Source: an uncultured delta proteobacterium (GTDB lineage: Bacteria > Myxococcota > Myxococcia > SLRQ01). Taken from it: a DNA stretch of 64,000 nucleotides. The stretch is from the NCBI GenBank assembly GCA_963727485.1, contig CAVSGM010000011.1, forward strand, positions 864,001 through 928,000. Direction: 5' to 3'. A program made the position numbers and the translations under genes. This document shows positions 33,309 through 47,993 of this stretch, piece after piece. Below the pieces are notes generated by a model, which had not been told where the DNA came from, made no database searches, and worked only from the letters and a program-made list of their open reading frames with translations. The first letter of the stretch is position 1; each line of letters starts with the position of its first letter.

Positions 33309-33466
33309 AGGCAGCAGGCGCTAGGTACCGGAAGTCACGAGCGATGGCAAGCCCAAGCGACACCCCGTGCGCAGGCGCCCGGATCCGCCCACGCGCGCGC
33401 ACCTGGATCCGCCTGGGGCACGGGCCCCCTTGTACCGATGACGCACCGCGCCGTAGATTGGACCCC

Positions 33467-36400
33467 ATGGTGCGCAGTCCCAGGGAGCCCCGGGCGGTCT
33501 TCGACCGCCTCGTCGCCCACCCGGGTCGCGGAGGGTGCGGCGTGGGGGCCGTGGCCGACCCCGCGGGCCCGAGCCGGGAGGTCCTCACCTGGGCGCTGGC
33601 GGGCCTCGGGTGCATGGAGCACCGGGGCGGCTGCATCGAGCAGACCGGCGACGGAGCGGGCCTGATGGTCCACACGCCCCGGGCCTTCTTCGAGCGCCAC
33701 CTGGCCCCGGGTCGCCACCTCCACCCCGGCGAGCACCTCGCCGTGGGCGTCCTCTTCTTTCCCCCGGGCGAGGAGGGCAACCTCCCGCCGACCCAGCACG
33801 AGAATCGACCACGTGCTCCGCCGCCAGGGCCTCTCGCCGCTGGGCTGGCGCAAGGTCCCGGTGAACGAGGCCGTCCTCGGCGAGGGCGCCCGCCGGAGCC
33901 GCAAGGACGTGTGGCAGGTCCTCATCGGCCAGGGGATGGTCCGGGCGAGCCACCTGCCGCTGGCGCTCTTCCGGGTCAAGGCGCGCCTCGAGGCGAGCTT
34001 CCGCGACCTCTACGTGGCGAGCCTCGCCGCCGACACCGTGGTCTACAAGGCGCTGGCCACCGGTCCCCAGCTCCTGGCCTTCTACCCGGACCTCGCCGAC
34101 CCCGACTTCGTCACCAATCTCGCCGTCTTCCACCGGCGCTACTCCACCAACACCTTCTCCAACTGGTACCTGGCCCAGCCCTTCCGGGTGCTCGGGCACA
34201 ACGGCGAGATCAACAGCATCAAGGCGGTGCGCTCGGCGGTGCGGAACCTCGAGGCGGAGCTCGGGCTCCCGGGGCTGCTCATGCACCAGGGCTCGGACTC
34301 CGCCGATCTCGACCGCATGGTCGAGCTGCTCACCAGCCACGGGATGCCGCTCCTCGAGGCGCTGGTGCGCACGCTGCCGGCGGCCTGGCGTGACGAGCCC
34401 GACGCCCCCCGGGAGATGATCCACTGGCAGGACGCGGTGCGCCGCGCCATGGGGACGCTGGCCGCCTGGGAGGGCCCGGCGGCGGTGGTGGCCAGCGACG
34501 AACGCAACCTGGTGGGCATCCTCGACCGGATGGGCCTGCGTCCCCTGCGCTGGGTGGTCACCCGGCACGGGCGCGTGGTCCTGGGCAGCGAGAATCGGCG
34601 CGGTCCCCGTCCCCGAGGGCGACATCGCCGAGACCGGCCAGCTCGAGCCCGGCGAGGCCTTCGCCGTGGACCTCGACCACGGGCGCGTCCTGCGCCCCGG
34701 CGACGTCGCCGAGGCCATCCTCGAGACCACCGCCCTCGACCACCGCGAGCTCCACACCCGGCGCCTCCACCCCCTGGTCCCCGCCGCCCGGGCGCCCGCG
34801 GGCGACGCCGACGACGCGCCGCCGTCGCGCACCGCCACCCCCGCCGACCGGTGGCTGACCCTCTTCGGCTGGGACGGCGGACGCACCCGGGTGACCCAGT
34901 CCATGGCCAAGGAGGGCAAGGAGCCCCTCTCGTCCATGGGCTTCGACCGGCCCCTGGCGGTGTTCAGCCCCCAGTGCCCGGTCCTCACCAAGTACTTCCG
35001 GCAAATCATCGCCGTGGTCACCAACCCGCCCATCGATCCCATCCGGGAGGGTGGGGCGATGGACCTCTCGGTGTACCTGGGCCGCTCGCCCCTCATCTCC
35101 GAGGACCTCCCCGAGTACTCGGTCCACCCCCAGTACCGCATCGAGCGCCCGGTCCTCTCCGAGGCCGAGCTCGAGACCGTCCGCGCCGGGGGGCCGGACC
35201 GGCCCGTCGCCACCGTGGTCGACGCCACCTACGCCTTCCCCCCGGGCGGCGCCGGGGACCCCCGGGCCATCGCCACCCGCATCGCCGAGCTCACCGAGCA
35301 GGCGGTGGGCGAGGTGCGCCGGGGCCAGGCCGACGTCCTCGTGGTCAGCGACCGCCGGGCCATCGACGGCCTCGACGCCGGCCGCCCGCCGGCGCGCCTG
35401 CCCCTGCCGCTGCTGCTCCTGGTGAGCTTCCTCCACGAGGCCCTCACCGACGTGGGGCTGCGCCGCCAGGCGTCGATCGTGGTGGAGACCGGCGAGGTCC
35501 AGGAGCCCCACGACGTCGCGGTCTACGTCGCCTCCGGCGCCGACGCCGTGTGCCCCTGGCTCTTCCTCGAGGTCTGCCGCACCACCCGCGGCGTGGCCCC
35601 GGCGGAGGGCGAGACCCACGGCCTCGAGGCCCTGGAGCACGGCCTCAAGCGCATCCTCTCGAAGATGGGCACCACCACCCTCGAGGGGTACCGGGGCTCC
35701 CGGCTCTTCGAGGCGGTGGGGGTGTCGCCGACGCTGGTCGACTACTACCTCCCCGGGATCACCTCGCGCCTCGGGGGCATCGGCCTCCGCGACCTCCACG
35801 ACGACGCCCTGGCCCGGGCCGCCCAGGCCGCCGACGCCGACCTGCGCTCGGTGCCCCGCCCCTTGGAGGTGAACGTCTACCGCAAGGAGGTGTGGCACAC
35901 CCTCCAGCAGGTGGCGCGCGGCGACGACCCCGAGGCCTGGCCGCGGTTCCGGGGGCTGGTCGCCGACACCCCGCCGGTCTACCTCCGGGACCTGATGCGC
36001 CTCGAGGCCAGCGGCCCGCCGGTGACCGAGGCCGAGGTGGCGCCGCCGGAGTCGATCGTCGCCACCACCTTCCGGGGCTCGGCCATGAGCCATGGGTCCC
36101 TCCACCGGGTCGCCCACCGGGCCATCGCCGCCGCCTTCAACCGCCTGGGCTCCAAGTCCAACAGTGGCGAGGGCGGCGAGGACCCGAGGCGCGACCGCGG
36201 CGGCGAGTGGGCCCTGGACCGCTCCCGGGTGCGCCGAATCGCCAGCGGCCGCTTTGGCGTCGACGCCCGCTACCTGGTCCACGCCGACGACCTGGAGATC
36301 AGAGATCGGCCAGGGCGCCAAGCCCGGGGAGGGCGGGCACCTCCCGGGGCACAAGGTCACCGCCGAGATCGCCTTCATCCGCAAGACCCGCGAGGGGGTG

Positions 36401-38089
36401 AGCCTCATCTCCCCGCCGCCCCACCACGACATCTACTCCATCGAGGACCTGGCCCAGCTGGTCTACGACCTGCGCCAAATCCATCCCCGCGCCGGGATCA
36501 GCGTGAAGTGCCCCACGGTCACCGACATCGGCACCATCGCCGTGGGCGTGGTCAAGGCCGGCGCCGACGTGGTCGCCATCTCCGGCTCCGAGGGGGGCAC
36601 CGGCGCCGCCGCGGCGAGCTCCATCGAGCACGCGGGGCTGCCTTTGGAGCGCGGGCTGGCCGAGGTGCACCAGGCGCTGGTGGTCAACGGCATCCGCCAG
36701 GGGGTGGTGCTGCGCGTCGACGGGGGCATCAAGACCGGTGACGACATCGTCAAGCTCCTCGCCCTCGGCGCCGACGAGGTCAGCCTGGGGACGGCGCTGA
36801 TGATCGCCGAGCAGTGCACCTTCTGCCACGGCTGCGCCAAGGGCAACTGCCCGGCGGGCATCACCACCCAGAGCGACGAGGTGGCCAAGCGCCTGATGAA
36901 GCTCAAGGGCGCCGACGCCAAGAAGGCCGCGCCCCAGCCGGTGATGGCGCTGGCCGCCATCCAGAACCCCGACGACGACGAGGAGATGCGCTACCAGGAC
37001 GCCACCGCGGCGGTGGAGCGCTACCTCCTGGCGTTGGCCGGCGACGTGCGCCGGACCCTGGCGCGCCTGGGCCTCAAGACCCCGGCGGAGCTGGTGGGCC
37101 GCGTGGACCTCCTGCGCCAGGCGCCCACCGGGAGCGCGCGCACCGACACCGTCGACCTCTCCGAGCTCCTGGTCGACCCCAAGGCCTTCGACGGCAAGCG
37201 CCAGCCCCTGGCGCGGATGGCGGTCTCGGCCCTCCCCGGCGACCGCGAGGCCCCGAGCCCGGCGAACGCCCGGATCCTCGAGGTCGTCGCCGCCGGCGTC
37301 GCCGAGACCGAGGCCGGCGCCCGCATCGGCCCGGTGGAGGTGGACCTCGGGATCCACGCCACCGACCGGGCGGTGGGGGCCACCCTCGCCGGCGAGATCG
37401 CCGCCGGCCGTCTCGCGGTCCCCGAGCACGGCATCCACCTGCGCCTCACGGGCAACGCCGGCCAGGCCCTGGGCTTCGGCCTCGTCGACGGCGTGCACCT
37501 CGACCTGGTGGGCTACGCCAACGACACGGTGGGCGAGGCCATGAGCGGCGGGCGCATCCTGGTGCGCCGCCCGGACGGCGTCCCCCGGGACGGCGGGCCG
37601 CGCACCGGCTCGGTGGCGGGCAACGCCGTGGGCTACGGGATGACCGGTGGCACCCTCTTCCTCGAGGGGCGCTGCGGCCAGCGCCTCGGGGTGCGCATGA
37701 GCGAGGGCGTCATCGTCTGCGAGGGCGCCGGGAAGTACGCCTTCGAGTACATGACCGGCGGGGTGGGGGTGGTCCTCGGCTCCACCGGCGCCCAGGCCTG
37801 CAGCGGGATGACCGGCGGGGTCGTCTACCTCCTCGAGGAGGTCGGGTCGAAGGCGCGGGTGAACCCCGACGCCGAGGCCGTTCCCCTCGAGGACGCCGAC
37901 GTGGCCCACCTCGAGGCCCTCCTCGGCGCCTTCGCCGAGGCCACCGGCTCCCGGCCGGCGCGCCGGCTCCTCGACGGCTGGCCCGAGGCGGCGTCGCGGT
38001 TCCTCAAGTTCGTGCCCCGGCACTCAGCCGCCGCTCCGGCTCTGACCGGCACGGGGAGCGTCACCCAGTGGGCGCGGTCCCGGCGCTGA
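33467..38089 (+). CDS. gltB: glutamate synthase large subunit (three +1 frameshifts at about 33804, 34594 and 36302)
   Basis: CGVG, HRGG...GDGAG, HRRYSTNT, HNGEIN, WEGPA, DRMGLRP, VTNPPIDP, SAMSHGS, SGEGGE, ASGRFGV, GQGAKPGEGGHLPG, SPPPHHDIYSIEDLAQL, GXGXG domain. Confidence 0.93.
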
Positions 38090-38213: not shown

Positions 38214-39501
38214 ATGGCCATGAAGCTGAAGACCCTCGTTTCGAATCCTCGGCGGCACCCTGCTCGCGTGCGCCGGCTGCGGCACCGGCGCCCAGGTCGC
38301 CGGCGGCCCCGTGGTGGCCAGCAGCGCCGCCGCCCTCTCCTCGGCGTCGGCGCCGGTGTGCCCCGGCCCGGCCCGGCCCGGCTCGGCCCGGTGCAACGCC
38401 TGGGTGCGCCTGAACACCGCCGGTCTCCCCTTCGCGCAGCCCGCCAAGGGCCCGGGGAACGGTCACGGTCCCGGCGGTGGTGGCGGCGGCGGCGGTGGCG
38501 GGACCCCGCCGCCCCCCTCGAGCGGGCTGAGGCCGGCGGACCTCCAGGCGGCCTACGGGCTCCCGTCGGCGACGGCGGGCGCGGGCCAGACCCTCGCCAT
38601 CGTCGACGCCAACGACGACCCCAACGCCGAGTCCGACATGAACGCCTACCGGGCCGCCTTCGGCCTCCCGGCGTGCACCACGGCGAACGGGTGCTTCCGC
38701 AAGGTCAACCAGAACGGCGTCCAGGGGAGCTACCCCCGCAAGGACGGTGGCTGGGCCCTGGAGATCTCCCTCGACCTCGACATGGCGAGCGCCGTCTGCC
38801 CCAACTGCAACATCCTCCTGGTCGAGGCGGACTCGGCGAGCATGGCCAACCTGGGCACCGCGGTGAACACCGCCGTGGCCCTCGGCGCCACCGTGGTGAG
38901 CAACAGCTACGGCGGCGGCGAGTACTCGGGTGAGGTCCAGGACGAGCTCACCTACTTCGACCACCCGGGCGTCGCCATCACCGTGAGCTCCGGCGACAAC
39001 GGCTACGGCGTGGAGTTCCCCGCAGCCTCGCAGTTCGTCACCGCCGTCGGCGGCACCTCGCTGACCACCGCCTCGGGCGCCCGCGGCTGGGCCGAGACCG
39101 CCTGGAGCGGCGCCGGCAGCGGCTGCAGCCAGTACGTGGCCAAGCCGAGCTGGCAGACCGACACCGGCTGCGCGGGCCGCACCGTCGCCGACGTCTCCGC
39201 GGTGGCCGACCCCAGCACCGGCGTCGCCGTCTACGACAGCGTCAAGTACCAGGGGCAGTCGGGGTGGTTCGTGGTCGGCGGCACCAGCGCCTCGGCGCCC
39301 ATCATCGGCGCCGTCTACGCCCTGGCGGGGAACGCCTCGAGCCTCACCTACGGCTCGGCCCCGTACTCGGGGACGAACCTCCTCAACGACGTGACCTCCG
39401 GGAGCAACGGGAGCTGCGGGGGCAGCTACCTGTGCACCGCGACCAGCGGCTTCGACGGCCCCACGGGCCTCGGCACCCCGGACGGCACCGGCGCCTTCTA
39501 G
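38214..39501 (+). CDS. S53 (sedolisin-like) serine peptidase, probable lipoprotein (+1 frameshift at about 38245)
   Basis: EISLD (Glu/Asp), SSGDNG, GGTSASAP, FDGPTGLGTP; the corrected N-terminus reads MAMKLKTLVSILGGTLLACAGCG. Confidence 0.88.
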
Positions 39502-39603
39502 GGCGCGTCTAGGCGCAATCGGTGCGGGTTTCCAGGGTCCGGTCCCGCATGGGGCCGGGCCCTGAATTTGGTCTCGCCGGATTTCCAGGTAACATGGGAT
39601 GCA

Positions 39604-41223
39604 GTGAAAACATGCAGCCCACGCAGACGCGTCTGCGGGGCGGCGGTTCTCCTGCTCGTGTCGGCAGGTTGCGTTGACGCGGTATCACAGCGTCCGTCCC
39701 TCGCATCGACCGCTTCGGAGCTGACGGCTTCGGCGGCACGTCACCGGTCCACCCCGGCCACGCCGGCCGGGTCCGGGTCCCGGAGCCAGGCGGCGACGGC
39801 CTCGTCGCCGGACGCCGCGCCCGAGGCCTCCGGCGCGGTGTCGGCGACCGGGGACGATGGCCTGACCGTCCCCGGCACCGACGACGGTGCGGCGCCCGCG
39901 CGGCGCCACCTCGCCGGCCCGTCCCTCGACGAGTGGAGACCCCGCTTCCGCCCCGTTCACCCGAAACCCCAGGGGGCCTACCCGGACGTCGCGGTGGTCA
40001 CCGACGACCAGGTGGCCATCTACCCGGCGGCCGCCGAGCGGCACCAGGTGGGCCTGGCGCGCCTGGGCAACCGCCTCCCGGCGCGGCCCACCGGCCACAG
40101 GTGCGACGACGGCCGGTGGTACCGGGTCCCGGGCCACGGCTACGTGTGCTCCGGCGACGGCCTCCACGTGGAGAAGCGCCCCCTCGACGGCCCGGTCCTC
40201 AATCGCGCCGACCGCAAGCGCCTCCCGCGGATCAACCGGCCCGACCCCTTCCGCTACGGGAAGGCCAAGGACGGCGGCCCGCCCCGCTTCGACCGCCTGC
40301 CCACGCGCCACGAGCTCGAGGCCCTCGACACCGGCGACGATCCGCCGGCGGGCCTGGTGCAGACCTGGATGAAGGGGGCCTACTGGCTGGCCCTGGCGCG
40401 GAAGGTGAAGGTCGGCGGCGTGCCCCTCTACGAGACCGTCGCCGGGCGCTTCGTCCGGGTCGACGACCTCAAGACCCGGCCCACGCCGCCGATGCACGGC
40501 GTCCACCTCGGACACGGCCGCGGCCTCCCCATGGCCTTCGCCTTCCACCCGACGCAGCTCTTCTGCCCCCGGGACGGCGACCTGGTCCTCTGCGGCACCG
40601 TGGACAAGCACGCGCGGTTCAAGCCCGAGGGGGTGAAGACCGTGGACGGCGAGGACTACGTGGTCACCGGCCTCGGCGACATCCCCCGCGGCGACGTGCG
40701 CATCGCCCGGCGCATCTCCCGGCCCAAGGGCGTCGGCGCCGGGGAGCGGTGGATCCACATCGACCTGTCCGAGCAGACCCTCACCGCCTACCAGGGCGAC
40801 ACCCCGGTGTTCGTGACCCTGGTGTCCACCGGGCGGCCGGGCCACGACACGGTGCGGGGCCTGTTCCGGGTGCAGCGCAAGTACGTCACCAAGACCATGC
40901 GCGGCGCCGACGCCGACGGGCCCTACGACGTCCAGGAGGTGCCCTGGACCATGTACTTCCACGGGAACTACGCGGTCCACGGGGCCTACTGGCACGACAT
41001 CTTCGGCCACACCAAGAGCCACGGCTGCGTCAACGTCCCCCCGGCGGACGCGCGGTGGCTCTACTACTGGAGCTCGCCCCACCTGCCCAAGGGGTGGTCG
41101 GCGATGCTCGGGGTGAAGGGCACCCACGTCTACGTCGACGGCCACACCCCGCCGGGGCAGCCCCCCGACGCCGATGACGCGCCCCCGACCTCGAAGGATC
41201 ACGGCGAGGTGGCCGGTGGGTGA
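39604..41223 (+). CDS. L,D-transpeptidase (YkuD family), probable lipoprotein; start uncertain
   Basis: WIHIDLSEQTLTAY, VSTG, HGAYWH...SHGCVN catalytic motif; lipobox-like VSAGC. Confidence 0.9.
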   Translation: MKTCSPRRRVCGAAVLLLVSAGCVDAVSQRPSLASTASELTASAARHRSTPATPAGSGSRSQAATASSPDAAPEASGAVSATGDDGLTVPGTDDGAAPARRHLAGPSLDEWRPRFRPVHPKPQGAYPDVAVVTDDQVAIYPAAAERHQVGLARLGNRLPARPTGHRCDDGRWYRVPGHGYVCSGDGLHVEKRPLDGPVLNRADRKRLPRINRPDPFRYGKAKDGGPPRFDRLPTRHELEALDTGDDPPAGLVQTWMKGAYWLALARKVKVGGVPLYETVAGRFVRVDDLKTRPTPPMHGVHLGHGRGLPMAFAFHPTQLFCPRDGDLVLCGTVDKHARFKPEGVKTVDGEDYVVTGLGDIPRGDVRIARRISRPKGVGAGERWIHIDLSEQTLTAYQGDTPVFVTLVSTGRPGHDTVRGLFRVQRKYVTKTMRGADADGPYDVQEVPWTMYFHGNYAVHGAYWHDIFGHTKSHGCVNVPPADARWLYYWSSPHLPKGWSAMLGVKGTHVYVDGHTPPGQPPDADDAPPTSKDHGEVAGG

Positions 41224-42109
41224 CGCCCTGCTCCGGGGGCTGCGGCCCCTCCTCGAGGGGAGCGACCGGCTCCTCGACCGGGTGAGCGCCGCCACCGGCG
41301 ACGCCTCGCGGACGGTGAAGTACCTCGCCGGCCGCGCGCGCTTCGTCCCCCGGGCGAGCGACGTCTACGTCGCCAGCTACCCGCGCTCGGGGACCACCTG
41401 GACCCAGCTCATCGTCCACCTCCTGGTCACCGGCGCCACGGGCCTCGACTTCGATCACCTCTCGGAGGTGTCGCCCTGGTTCGAGCAATCGCTGGCCTGG
41501 CGCACGGGCGCCGCCGACGCCTTCGCCCGGCTCCCGGCGCCCCGGGTGTTCAAGACCCACCTGCCGTACCGGTGGCTCCCGGGCTCGGGGCGCTGCCTCC
41601 ACGTGGTGCGGGACCCCGGCGACGTGGTGGTCTCCTACTACCACCTCTACCGGCGCTACCTCGGGTGGGCCCTGCCCTTCGACGCCTTCTTCGAGCGCTT
41701 CCTCGCCGGCGAGGTCCAGTACCGCTCCTACTTCGACCACCTCGCCGGGTGGCGTGCGGCCCCGGAGGGGCGGGTCCTCGAGGTCTCCTACGAGGCCCTG
41801 CGCGCCGACCCCGCCTTCGGGGTGCGCCGCATCGCCTCCTTCCTCGAGGTGCCGGTGGACGACGCCCGGGTGGAGGCGGTGGTCGACCTCACCGGCTTCG
41901 AGCGGATGAAGGCCGAGGAGCACAAGCTCGACCACCTCGGTGAGCTCGCCCGCCAGCGCGGCGCCACCGGCGGGACCTTCGTCCGCGCCGGGCGGGTGGC
42001 CCGGGGCGCGGGCACCCTCTCCGACACCCAGCGCGCCGCCCTCGATCGGGCCCTCGCCGGGGCCCGCCGCCCGAGGCCGAAGTGGCACCTCCCGGCGTTC
42101 CTCCACTGA
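41216..42109 (+). CDS. sulfotransferase (SULT / Sulfotransfer_1-like)
   Basis: 5'-PSB loop YPRSGTTW, KTHLP, 3'-PB RDPGDVVVSYY, SYFDH..GW, YEAL, F.RMK, FVRAGRV. Confidence 0.92.
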   Translation: MGDALLRGLRPLLEGSDRLLDRVSAATGDASRTVKYLAGRARFVPRASDVYVASYPRSGTTWTQLIVHLLVTGATGLDFDHLSEVSPWFEQSLAWRTGAADAFARLPAPRVFKTHLPYRWLPGSGRCLHVVRDPGDVVVSYYHLYRRYLGWALPFDAFFERFLAGEVQYRSYFDHLAGWRAAPEGRVLEVSYEALRADPAFGVRRIASFLEVPVDDARVEAVVDLTGFERMKAEEHKLDHLGELARQRGATGGTFVRAGRVARGAGTLSDTQRAALDRALAGARRPRPKWHLPAFLH

Positions 42110-43077
42110 TGATCGAGACCCTGCCCCGACCCGCCGCCAGCTGGCTCACCCGGGCCGCCGAGTGCGCCCGCCAGGAGCCGCTCATCGACACCCGCATGTC
42201 CCTGGCGAGCCTCCGCCGCGCCGACGCCTGCCGGCCCCCGCGGGTGGTGTACCTGGGCATCGGGCTCGCCTTCCGGGACGCCCTGTCCCAGGGGGTGCCC
42301 GTGGATCTGCTCGGGGTGGTCCTCCCCGCCGAGGCGGTGCGCCGGGCCATCGGCGCCGAGCGCCTGGTGGTCCTCTTGGCCGACCGCCACGCCACCGCCA
42401 ACGGCTTCCACGAGCGGGACGTCGCCGACCGGGCGCGGGCGGTGGAGGCGGTCCTCGACCGGGCCCGCGTCGACTGCGGCCTCGAGGGCCTCGAGGTGGT
42501 CCGCGCCTCGGCGTTCCATGGGTCGGCGGCCTACCGCGACGCCCTCGCCGAGGTGCGGCGCCGGCGTCCGGGCCTCCACGAGTACGTGGCCCGGCAGCTC
42601 GCCGACGCCCTCTGCCTCGACCGGCGCCACGGGGGGCTGCTCAAGGTGGGCTGGGCCCTGCGCGGGGCCGAGTCGCGCCGGCGCCGGGACGAGCTGGCCT
42701 TCGACCGGGAGCTCCGGACGGTGGCCGGGGAGCGCATCGCCTTCGTCTACTGCAAGCCCGGCCGCGCCCTCTCCGACGAGGCGCCCCGGGTGCCGCCCTA
42801 CGCGGTCCGCCGCCCGGGGGCGCGTCTCTGCCTCGACCGCCCCGAGGACGCCCGGGCCAAGCTCAAGGCCGGCTGGCTCCGGGCCTCGGCCCAGACCGTT
42901 CGCGCCTGCCGCCGCCACCTCCGGGCGCTCCTCTACACCTACGACCGCCTCGCCGAGCCCCTGCCCCGGGGGCCCCTGGAGCGACGGATGGACGCCCTCA
43001 TCGACCGCCTCGGGCCTGACGACGAGGCGGGCGCGGGGGTCCCGGATCCCGAGCCGCCCGAGCGGGCCACCGGCTGA
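42109..43077 (+). CDS. TyrRS/TrpRS (class Ic) catalytic-domain paralogue lacking HIGH/KMSKS and an anticodon domain
   Basis: VVYLG, VLLADRHA, VVRASAF and YVARQLADALCL line up in order with TyrRS AYIG, LLADLHA, GSEF and YPIMQVND; TGATG coupling to the sulfotransferase. The ORF is solid, the fold is inferred. Confidence 0.6.
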   Translation: MIETLPRPAASWLTRAAECARQEPLIDTRMSLASLRRADACRPPRVVYLGIGLAFRDALSQGVPVDLLGVVLPAEAVRRAIGAERLVVLLADRHATANGFHERDVADRARAVEAVLDRARVDCGLEGLEVVRASAFHGSAAYRDALAEVRRRRPGLHEYVARQLADALCLDRRHGGLLKVGWALRGAESRRRRDELAFDRELRTVAGERIAFVYCKPGRALSDEAPRVPPYAVRRPGARLCLDRPEDARAKLKAGWLRASAQTVRACRRHLRALLYTYDRLAEPLPRGPLERRMDALIDRLGPDDEAGAGVPDPEPPERATG

Positions 43078-43171: not shown

Positions 43172-43849
43172 ATGGCGCGTGCGACGCGGCTGGTGATCCT
43201 TCTCGCCGGGGCGTTCCTCGCCTCCGGCTGCGCGACCTTCGGGACCATGCAGACGGCGAGCACCGTCGGCCGGGGGCACACCCGGGTGGCCCTCGAGCCG
43301 TCGATGTGGGGCGCGGCCACGCCCGACGGGACCGCCCTGGTCCCGGTCGTCACCCTCTCCGCCGAGCACGGCTTGAGCGACCAGGTGGACATCGGCGGCC
43401 GGGTGGGGACCTCGGGCTTCGAGCTCTGGGGGAAGCTCCAGCTGACCCCGCCGCTCTCCCCGGTGATCCTGTCCCTGGCCCCGAGCGCCGGGGGCTTCGC
43501 CCTGGTCGGCAGCGGGGGCGGCGGCGGGATCCTCTTCTTCCAGCTCCCGGTGCTCGTGGGGATCCGCGTCGGGGGCAGCGAGCTGGTCCTCGGCCCCAAG
43601 ATCCATGACTGGATGCTGATCGGCAGCAGCGGCGGCACCAACGGGAGCGGGAACCTCGTCAGCGTCGGCGGCACCCTGGGCTTCGCCCTGCGCCTGGGCC
43701 CGGGCTTCCGGATCATGCCCGAGATCGCCGTCCTCCGGCCGGTGGTGGCGTCGGTGACCGCCGGGACCGGGGACAACACCCTCACCCAGGTCTTCTCCAG
43801 CCAGGCCTACCTGCTCCAGTTCTCGGTCTCCCTGATGTTCGGGGGGTAG
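43172..43849 (+). CDS. lipoprotein with outer-membrane beta-barrel-like strands
   Basis: Lipobox LASGC; alternating hydrophobic strands; ends FSVSLMFGG. Confidence 0.7.
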   Translation: MARATRLVILLAGAFLASGCATFGTMQTASTVGRGHTRVALEPSMWGAATPDGTALVPVVTLSAEHGLSDQVDIGGRVGTSGFELWGKLQLTPPLSPVILSLAPSAGGFALVGSGGGGGILFFQLPVLVGIRVGGSELVLGPKIHDWMLIGSSGGTNGSGNLVSVGGTLGFALRLGPGFRIMPEIAVLRPVVASVTAGTGDNTLTQVFSSQAYLLQFSVSLMFGG

Positions 43850-46672: not shown

Positions 46673-46676
<4 letters not shown>

Positions 46677-47993
46677 CGGCGCTGGCGAAGGCCGGTCGTC
46701 CCGGCCTCTTCGAGGCGAGCCTGGAGTGGCTCGACGCCCAGGCCCCGCTCCCCGGTGCGCCCTGGCTCCTGCGGCTGCGGCAGCAGGCCGAGGCCCGGTG
46801 GCGAGACGCCGGGCTCCCGGGGCCCAAGGACGAGGCCTTCCGGTTCACGCCGCTTCGCGAGGTGGCCGCGGTGCCCTTCGCGCCGGCGACGGGGGCCGGC
46901 GATCCCGCGGCGGTGCTGGCGGCGCTCCCGGAGACGGGCGACCTGGTGGTCCCGGTGGTCGACGGGGTGCCGCGGCTGCCCGACGAGGCCCTCGACGGCG
47001 TCACCGTGCGCGGCCTCGCCGAGGTCCTCGCCAGCGCGCCCCACGAGGTCGAGGGCCACCTGGGCCACGTCACCCGCCCGGCGCCGTTCACCGACCTGAA
47101 CACCGCGCGGTTCGCCTCCGGGGTGGTGGTCACCGTGGCTCGGGGCGCCGCGCCCTCGCGGACCGTGCACCTGGTCCACGTGGCCACCGGCGGCGACACG
47201 CCGTCCGCGTCCCACCCCCGGGTGCTGGTCGTCGCCGAGGCCGGGAGCCGCCTGCGCCTGGTGGAGAGCTTCCACGGGCCCGACGGCGCCGCCTACGCTG
47301 GTGAACCCCGTCACCGAGGTCCACGTGGGCGAAGGCGCGGCGGTCGACCACCTGCGCCTCGAGGTCGAGGGCGACGGCGCCTTCCACCTCGGGACCTGCG
47401 CCGCCCGCTGCGAGACCGGCGGCCGCTACCACTCCCGGGTCTTCGCCTTCGGGGGGAAGCTGGCGCGCCTCGACCTCGACGTGGCCCTCGCCGGCGTGGG
47501 CGCCGAGGCCTCCCTCGACGGCCTCTACCTCTCCGGGGGCACCCAGCTCCTCGACCACCACACCTTCGTCGACCACGTGTCGCCCGGGGCCACCAGCCGC
47601 GAGGTCTACAAGGGCATCCTCGACGGGAAGAGCACCGCGGTCTTCGACGGCACCATCGTGGTCCGTCCCGACGCCCAGAAGACCAGCGGCGCCCAGGAGA
47701 ACCGCAACCTCCTGCTCTCCCGCGAGGCCCAGGTGCACACCAAGCCCCACCTCGCCATCGACGCCGACGACGTGAAGTGCAGCCACGGCGCCACCGTGGG
47801 CCAGCTCGACGAGGGCCCCCTCTTCTACCTGCGCAGCCGGGGCCTCGACGAGGCCACCGCCCGGGGCATCCTCATCTTCGGCTTCGCCCGCGAGGTGGTC
47901 GACGGGGTGCCGGACGAGGCCTGGCGCCGGCACCTCGGCGAGGCCCTCATCGCCCGCCTCCCCGACGGGGCGCGGCTCCGGGAGCTCCTATGA
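46673..47993 (+). CDS. sufD: Fe-S assembly protein SufD (frameshift near 47298)
   Basis: E.FRFT N-terminus, then AVFDG, AQKT, KPHLAIDADDVKCSHGATVGQLD..LFYLRSRG in the next frame. Confidence 0.93.

Follow-up and report, generated by a model that had tools for sequence, protein, structure and literature searches.

What does a protein built like a tyrosyl-tRNA synthetase (TyrRS), but stripped of its ATP-binding motifs, do directly behind a sulfotransferase gene? The question is raised by a 64,000-nucleotide stretch of an uncultured member of the Myxococcota (assembly GCA_963727485.1, genome G000 here; contig CAVSGM010000011.1, positions 864,001 to 928,000), referred to below as the window. Three overlapping plus-strand genes of the window encode a YkuD L,D-transpeptidase, a SULT-type sulfotransferase and a 322-aa protein, here called X (42109..43077), which is a motif-stripped, full-length paralogue of archaeal-type TyrRS. 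X represents a real and conserved family (325 representatives at 50% identity) that is apparently undescribed: Pfam and NCBIfam profiles gave no match, and no description was found in the literature searched, whose coverage excludes most subscription papers and all supplements. Its sequence points to an ATP-independent enzyme derived from an aminoacyl-tRNA synthetase (aaRS), of the kind represented by cyclodipeptide synthases (CDPSs) and SbzA and falling outside both the TyrRSs and the CDPSs; the function that we favour, tentatively, is a cofactor-free epimerisation of Tyr-tRNA.

The derivation of X from a class Ic TyrRS, proposed in the initial annotation, is borne out: X has the Rossmann fold followed by a C-terminal helical domain and can be aligned to TyrRS up to residue 315, so that the impression that no anticodon domain was recognisable has to be given up. 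All motifs quoted there for X and the sulfotransferase are present, and the reported loss of the ATP motifs extends to the whole family. Among 139 aligned X-family proteins, the basis of all residue counts given here (with reference residues from PMC3105412), none has His at HIGH positions 60 or 63. In the segment G50-x-G52...S60-Q-G-V63 (42256..42297), SQGV occupies the HIGH position and Gly that of the CDPS serine; G50 and G52 are found in all 139 proteins and Gly/Ala62 in 124. The KMSKS-equivalent loop presumably reads RVPPY (42787..42801), with Lys/Arg227 in 112, Pro230 in 139 and Tyr231 in 138 proteins; Lys at 230, the second KMSKS lysine, occurs in none. A profile alignment puts KMSKS a few residues earlier, at GRALS, where the motif is missing too, and strands 218-219 and 227-228 are paired in the secondary-structure string of the model. 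Because the His/His/Lys of the triphosphate side are lost, X presumably cannot adenylate; the adenosine side (Gly/Ala62, Asp194 in 136 proteins, Lys/Arg227) is kept.

What remains of the tyrosine pocket? In excerpts of PMC3105412, the tyrosine-binding residues of TyrRS are Y32, Y151, Q155, D158 and Q173. X of the window has Y48, Y159, Q163 and D166 from this set, and E195 at the Q173 position. Retention of the pocket, claimed earlier, is supported: Y159 is found in 139/139 proteins, Q/E163 in 139 and D166 in 126, Y48 in only 59. The pocket residues Y159, Q163, D166, K179-x-G-W182 and D194-E195 (42583..42693) align with YPxxQxxD, the Gln of IQLGG and the DQ of GGxDQ in TyrRS; K179, W182 and E195 are each invariant. 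The amino-group set D92, Y159, Q/E163 and E195 occurs jointly in 136 of the 139 proteins, and the phenol side, H94 with D166, in 123. X would accordingly be expected to hold a free alpha-amino group. A Glu at the Q173 position should favour an uncharged carbonyl, for instance that of an ester, which fits Tyr-tRNA, quite probably the substrate of X. K179 presumably lies on the pocket floor, at the position of the IQLGG Gln, and may replace the Tyr32 hydrogen bond. Sulfotyrosine is unlikely as X's own ligand, since the conserved D166 sits at the hydroxyl position. In a subclade comprising P0137, P0138, P0143, P0148, P0152 and kin, H94 is replaced by Asn and D166 by Gln/His; these proteins probably bind another amino acid.

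X shares 16% identity with archaeal/eukaryal-type TyrRS (A. pernix 2cya, M. jannaschii 1j1u; PF00579, NF006330), from which it also differs by the invariant Lys on the pocket-floor strand, a reduced C-terminal domain as well as a connective polypeptide 1 (CP1) that is about 20 residues shorter (median of 25 residues against 44-47 in the archaeal type). Eight alignment columns are invariant in X, among which G52, K179, W182, E195, P230 and R239 have no TyrRS counterpart. This is the pattern expected of a new active site, and it makes improbable both a non-catalytic role, in which X would bind tyrosine as a partner or sensor, be it as half of a TyrRS pseudo-dimer or as a substrate carrier for the sulfotransferase, and an action of X on free Tyr or tyramine independently of tRNA. 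The translational coupling of X to the sulfotransferase would suit such roles, as would three fusions of X with a full TyrRS, which occur in either order and with both TyrRS types and recall the half-dead pseudo-dimeric trypanosome TyrRS (PMC9437257, in part). However, the CP1 dimer region is shortened, and X is not near tyrS in the window genome, which encodes TyrRS and TrpRS separately and X in a single copy.

CDPSs (AlbC, Rv2275; PF16715) resemble X in their class Ic ancestry, the absence of ATP motifs, a shortened dimer surface and equivalents of G35 and Y178. The early statement that X is not a CDPS is upheld: YxxxExP occurs in none of the 139 proteins, and the serine of the G-x-S motif, S37 in AlbC, is Gly52 in all of them. 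CDPSs have neither a C-terminal domain nor a KMSKS loop, according to parts of PMC3105412, whereas X retains the domain. An atypical CDPS making a sulfated cyclo-Tyr product is therefore very improbable, with neither Ser nor Cys at position 52 and with Gln163 in this protein as in 22 of the 24 cassette copies, given that AlbC E182Q is inactive (PMC3105412, same parts). To isocyanide synthases (PvcA/DIT1, PF05141) X has no Pfam match, and a profile-profile comparison gave 2.2% with E 0.022. SbzA and other aaRS-like aminoacyl-tRNA transferases share the aaRS scaffold and, in SbzA, the use of aminoacyl-tRNA outside translation, but SbzA descends from IleRS, and the X cassette has no recognised acceptor. 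In the available portion of a review on duplicated aaRSs, TyrZ, pseudo-dimeric TyrRS, SbzA and CDPSs are named and the X family is not (PMC9437257).

With whom does X travel? It was found in 19 of 401 Myxococcota genomes (including the unpublished G196), 13 of them from one family, and in none of the four other genomes of the window's own family. Genomes and GTDB loci together, after removal of 6 duplicates, gave 24 distinct loci that were read, including the window's own and L004 from the unpublished G403; the G196 locus is not among them. In the family tree (FastTree, midpoint root, every second A2 row used), the cassette X proteins group in a single well-supported clade. The transpeptidase adjoins X in 24/24 loci. 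In 21 of the 24, a sulfotransferase is found no further than about 2.5 kb away, in five gene orders; it is missing from two loci of one genus (in G205 also genome-wide at E<=1e-35), where X and the transpeptidase alone form the minimal unit, and L006 ends before its presence could be judged. Genes for the supply of 3'-phosphoadenosine 5'-phosphosulfate (PAPS) stand beside 8 X loci, namely adenosine 5'-phosphosulfate kinase in 6, mostly of one genus, and CysD/CysN in 2 (one representative of each scanned), and an EamA exporter beside 4 (one representative scanned). Neither a racemase gene nor an acceptor-making gene recurs in the X cassettes. The initial annotation had singled out the sulfotransferase as the partner of X; the linkage is real, but the transpeptidase is the more constant neighbour, and sulfotransferase orthologues also occur without X. 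None of the three observations it had named as fatal to its proposal, namely another fold, Tyr/His/Gln/Asp residues that are not conserved and homologues unlinked to sulfotransferases, was made in full.

The transpeptidase gene (39568..41223; YkuD, PF03734, 76 bits, cut-off 23.4) comes first and its stop overlaps the sulfotransferase start by 8 nt. Its product is probably exported, the start codon being uncertain; by eye, the N-terminus shows a hydrophobic stretch ending in AGC. The His/Cys motif HGAYWH...SHGCxN is kept across 24 cassette copies, and relatives in the PDB match at E about 1e-7. The sulfotransferase (41216..42109; Sulfotransfer_1, PF00685, 138 bits, cut-off 22) is of the cytosolic, PAPS-dependent SULT type, with the 5'-phosphosulfate-binding loop YPRSGTTW, the catalytic-His motif FKTHL and the 3'-phosphate motif RDPGDVVVS all present; YPRSGTTW and FKxHL are conserved in 21 copies. 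Among solved structures, the nearest are phenol and amine sulfotransferases of the SULT1/SULT3 kind (E about 1e-29 to 1e-24).

Which enzymes replace X when it is absent? At E<1e-50, 21 of 401 genomes encode an orthologue of the sulfotransferase; 17 of them have X, and in the other 4 X was found neither at the locus nor genome-wide. Directly upstream of the sulfotransferase, all 4 encode a HisC/CobD-like pyridoxal 5'-phosphate (PLP) enzyme, whose orthologue is found in 0 of 22 X-positive genomes tested; in 3 of the 4 the transpeptidase adjoins. The X-less operon of G031 (L166:2519-10198) comprises a symporter, a GNAT protein, an Orr/Alr-type racemase, the HisC-like enzyme at L166:5649-6947, the sulfotransferase, a TauE exporter and the transpeptidase. 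At least 26 of the 401 genomes encode an orthologue of the transpeptidase (E<1e-60): 19 with X, 4 with the HisC-like enzyme and 3 with a MetC-like PLP enzyme that abuts the transpeptidase without a sulfotransferase (L170:1489-4221, L171:6812-9388, L172:6830-9477); in L170 the MetC-like gene covers 1489-2652. Close orthologues of the MetC-like enzyme (57-59%) are confined to those 3 of 36 genomes, and two X-positive genomes have matches of 43-47%. A MATE exporter stands beside one of these three loci. Since PLP enzymes occupy the slot of X where X is absent, the cassette is composed of an amino-acid enzyme, an optional sulfotransferase and exporter, and a transpeptidase. In Vibrio, wall editing with non-canonical D-amino acids by a racemase and an L,D-transpeptidase (BsrV/Ldt) was reportedly described by Cava in 2011 and Lam in 2009. 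The cassette likewise couples an amino-acid enzyme to a YkuD transpeptidase, but here the enzyme is a paralogue of an aaRS and is joined by a sulfotransferase with PAPS supply. Rather likely, the cassette uses a Tyr derivative to act on the wall.

A second context of X was found in a metagenome scan with a subgroup of low guanine-cytosine content (low-GC), which yielded 62 loci, some near-identical, with no sulfotransferase or transpeptidase in any of them by the cassette profiles. A TyrRS gene lies within the locus in 39 of the 62 and in 31 of the 35 loci of at least 7 kb; 8 of the 62 have two copies. An enolase-superfamily racemase-like gene is present in 30 loci and an Asp/Glu racemase in 4 (one or the other in 27 of the 35 longer loci), and other neighbours are GATase (17), GCS2 ligase (15), VanX-like (11), prephenate dehydratase (8) and prephenate dehydrogenase (3). 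A 400-aa family lacking Pfam/NCBIfam matches, GNAT-like by eye, occurs in 9 of the 62 (L056:8064-9290 and 8 more) beside enolase-like and VanX-like genes. A tRNA-Tyr gene was found in 15 of 39 loci scanned. In L058, L060, L087 and L090 it is a C1:G72 tRNA-Tyr beside an archaeal-type TyrRS, L087 having an ordinary G1 copy as well; the four loci look bacterial, and the pairs may be natural orthogonal ones travelling with X. Short TyrRS copies (314-324 aa) directly follow X at L076:6884-7843, L097:1513-2454, L098:1341-2312 and L106:6885-7832, with a full-length one then in three loci. In P0074, an Acetyltransf_6 GNAT domain is fused ahead of X and the tail is odd, which may be a frameshift artefact.

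Dedicated TyrRS/tRNA-Tyr pairs, double TyrRS loci and Tyr-pathway genes such as those for prephenate dehydratase and dehydrogenase fit a consumer of Tyr-tRNA, and X could be a Tyr-tRNA-dependent aminoacyl transferase, similar to SbzA, FemX or a CDPS lacking the covalent serine. It would load Tyr onto an acceptor with an amine or hydroxyl group, which might be a D-amino acid, and the product would be sulfated, exported and linked to the wall, which comes closest to the initial annotation's plausible sulfotyrosine-containing product. E195 could deprotonate the acceptor, SbzA and CDPSs set precedents (PMC9437257, in part), and sulfotransferases are common beside CDPS genes (PMC5767969, in part). 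We nevertheless regard the transferase as doubtful: a nucleophile at the CDPS serine position occurs in 0/139, C54, missing here, is present in 23 of the 24 cassette copies but in only 79 of the 139 family proteins, the cassette offers no recurring acceptor-making gene, and amide-bond formation is not a reaction of the PLP enzymes found in that slot. The Ala at residue 54 in the window (42268-42270) could reflect natural variation or an error of the assembly.

In several loci lacking a racemase, X lies directly between tRNA-Tyr and TyrRS, a place that would suit a stand-alone proofreader hydrolysing D-Tyr-tRNA or D-Tyr-AMP, with racemases, sulfation plus export, and transpeptidase as sinks for the freed D-Tyr. 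TyrRS discriminates against D-Tyr by a factor of only about 20, has no editing domain and relies on DTD (PMC6765224, in part); CtdA is a precedent for a stand-alone deacylase (PMC10018355, in part), and the invariant E195 suits water activation. DTD, TyrZ and editors such as CtdA are also like X in being linked to TyrRS and in that they may help to keep D-Tyr off tRNA-Tyr, or on it, but the fold of X is unrelated to that of DTD and CtdA, and TyrZ is an intact synthetase. Moreover, dtd (PF02580 over cut-off) is kept in 23/23 X-positive genomes tested, including G403 (the window genome's copy is in two pieces), so that X is not a dtd replacement. For this reason we lowered our estimate, and a deacylase, which would leave both the missing D-Tyr source of the X cassettes and the recruitment of PAPS synthesis unexplained, appears unlikely.

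One chemistry must fit both contexts, in which tyrosine, tRNA-Tyr and handedness recur; and since no racemase recurs in X cassettes, a D-amino acid source is missing there unless X supplies it. From the observed fold, residue conservation and gene linkage we infer the substrate, the wall role and the epimerisation, which may be combined in the following manner: The housekeeping TyrRS makes L-Tyr-tRNA. X, ATP-independent on its TyrRS scaffold, would bind tyrosine esterified to the adenosine of tRNA-Tyr and invert its alpha carbon without a cofactor, the invariant E195 being the likely base, to give D-Tyr-tRNA. D-Tyr would be released by X or DTD, sulfated on its phenol by the sulfotransferase, moved out of the cell by an exporter and attached to peptidoglycan stems by the L,D-transpeptidase, a class of enzyme that provides a route for D-amino acids into stems. 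The sequence of sulfation, export and attachment is suggested by gene content only. In the low-GC clade, the same equilibrium could serve D-Tyr salvage beside TyrRS. Favouring the epimerase are the amino-group set and adenosine side kept while the triphosphate side is lost, the low-GC TyrRS genes, fusions, tRNA-Tyr and racemase neighbours, the transpeptidase adjacency, the PLP enzymes in the slot of X, and the EamA and PAPS genes. Peptidoglycan stems are modified by transpeptidases and non-canonical D-amino acids (PMC3585186, in part). Among aminotransferase-class enzymes, MalY is a bifunctional racemase, and a title cited in the same source has MetC rescuing D-Ala-free growth (PMC5845896, in part).

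Several observations pull the other way. The candidates for a second acid/base beside E195, namely K179, Y231 or H94, are suggested by conservation only. With the shorter CP1, some of the dimer and acceptor-stem surface of TyrRS is lost and tRNA binding is therefore not assured, and tRNA-Tyr occurs in only 1 of 20 Myxococcota loci, within a housekeeping cluster. In the low-GC clade other racemase modules lie next to X, an arrangement that would be redundant if D-Tyr came from X. At the ring-stacking position equated with the MalY racemase residue Tyr123, all four HisC-like enzymes carry Phe instead of Tyr; they may thus act simply as transaminases or decarboxylases, and racemisation need not be what the slot is for. 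In G039 the transpeptidase is on a different contig from the sulfotransferase, additional transpeptidase copies that lack partners occur in three X-positive genomes, and many X loci are kin, 13 of 18 belonging to one family.

Two genes flanking the cassette, neither recurrent beside X, have no Pfam match at E<=1: 38311-39501 encodes a secreted protein with a GTSAS motif, which we take to be serine protease-like, and 43172-43849 a small exported protein. Genes broken across frames, at 33344-38089 and 46673-47993 in the window (read by eye and presumably the glutamate synthase large subunit and sufD), trpS (G000:C11:129330-130044) and dtd (G000:C3:575575-576004), suggest indel errors in the assembly.

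CDPSs arose from class Ic synthetases, and X is a second, widespread and unannotated offshoot with its own invariant active site. Any of the three leading chemistries, epimerase, transferase or deacylase, would, if true, be a new tRNA-linked activity on tyrosine, and the low-GC orthogonal TyrRS/tRNA-Tyr pairs may find use in code expansion. The cassette predicts a wall modification, a sulfated D-amino acid or a Tyr conjugate; no report of either, including sulfated D-amino acids in peptidoglycan, was found in the literature searched. It is possible, although we would not press it, that X is the founder of cofactor-free aminoacyl-tRNA epimerases, which in these myxobacteria-related genomes would feed O-sulfated D-tyrosine into peptidoglycan.

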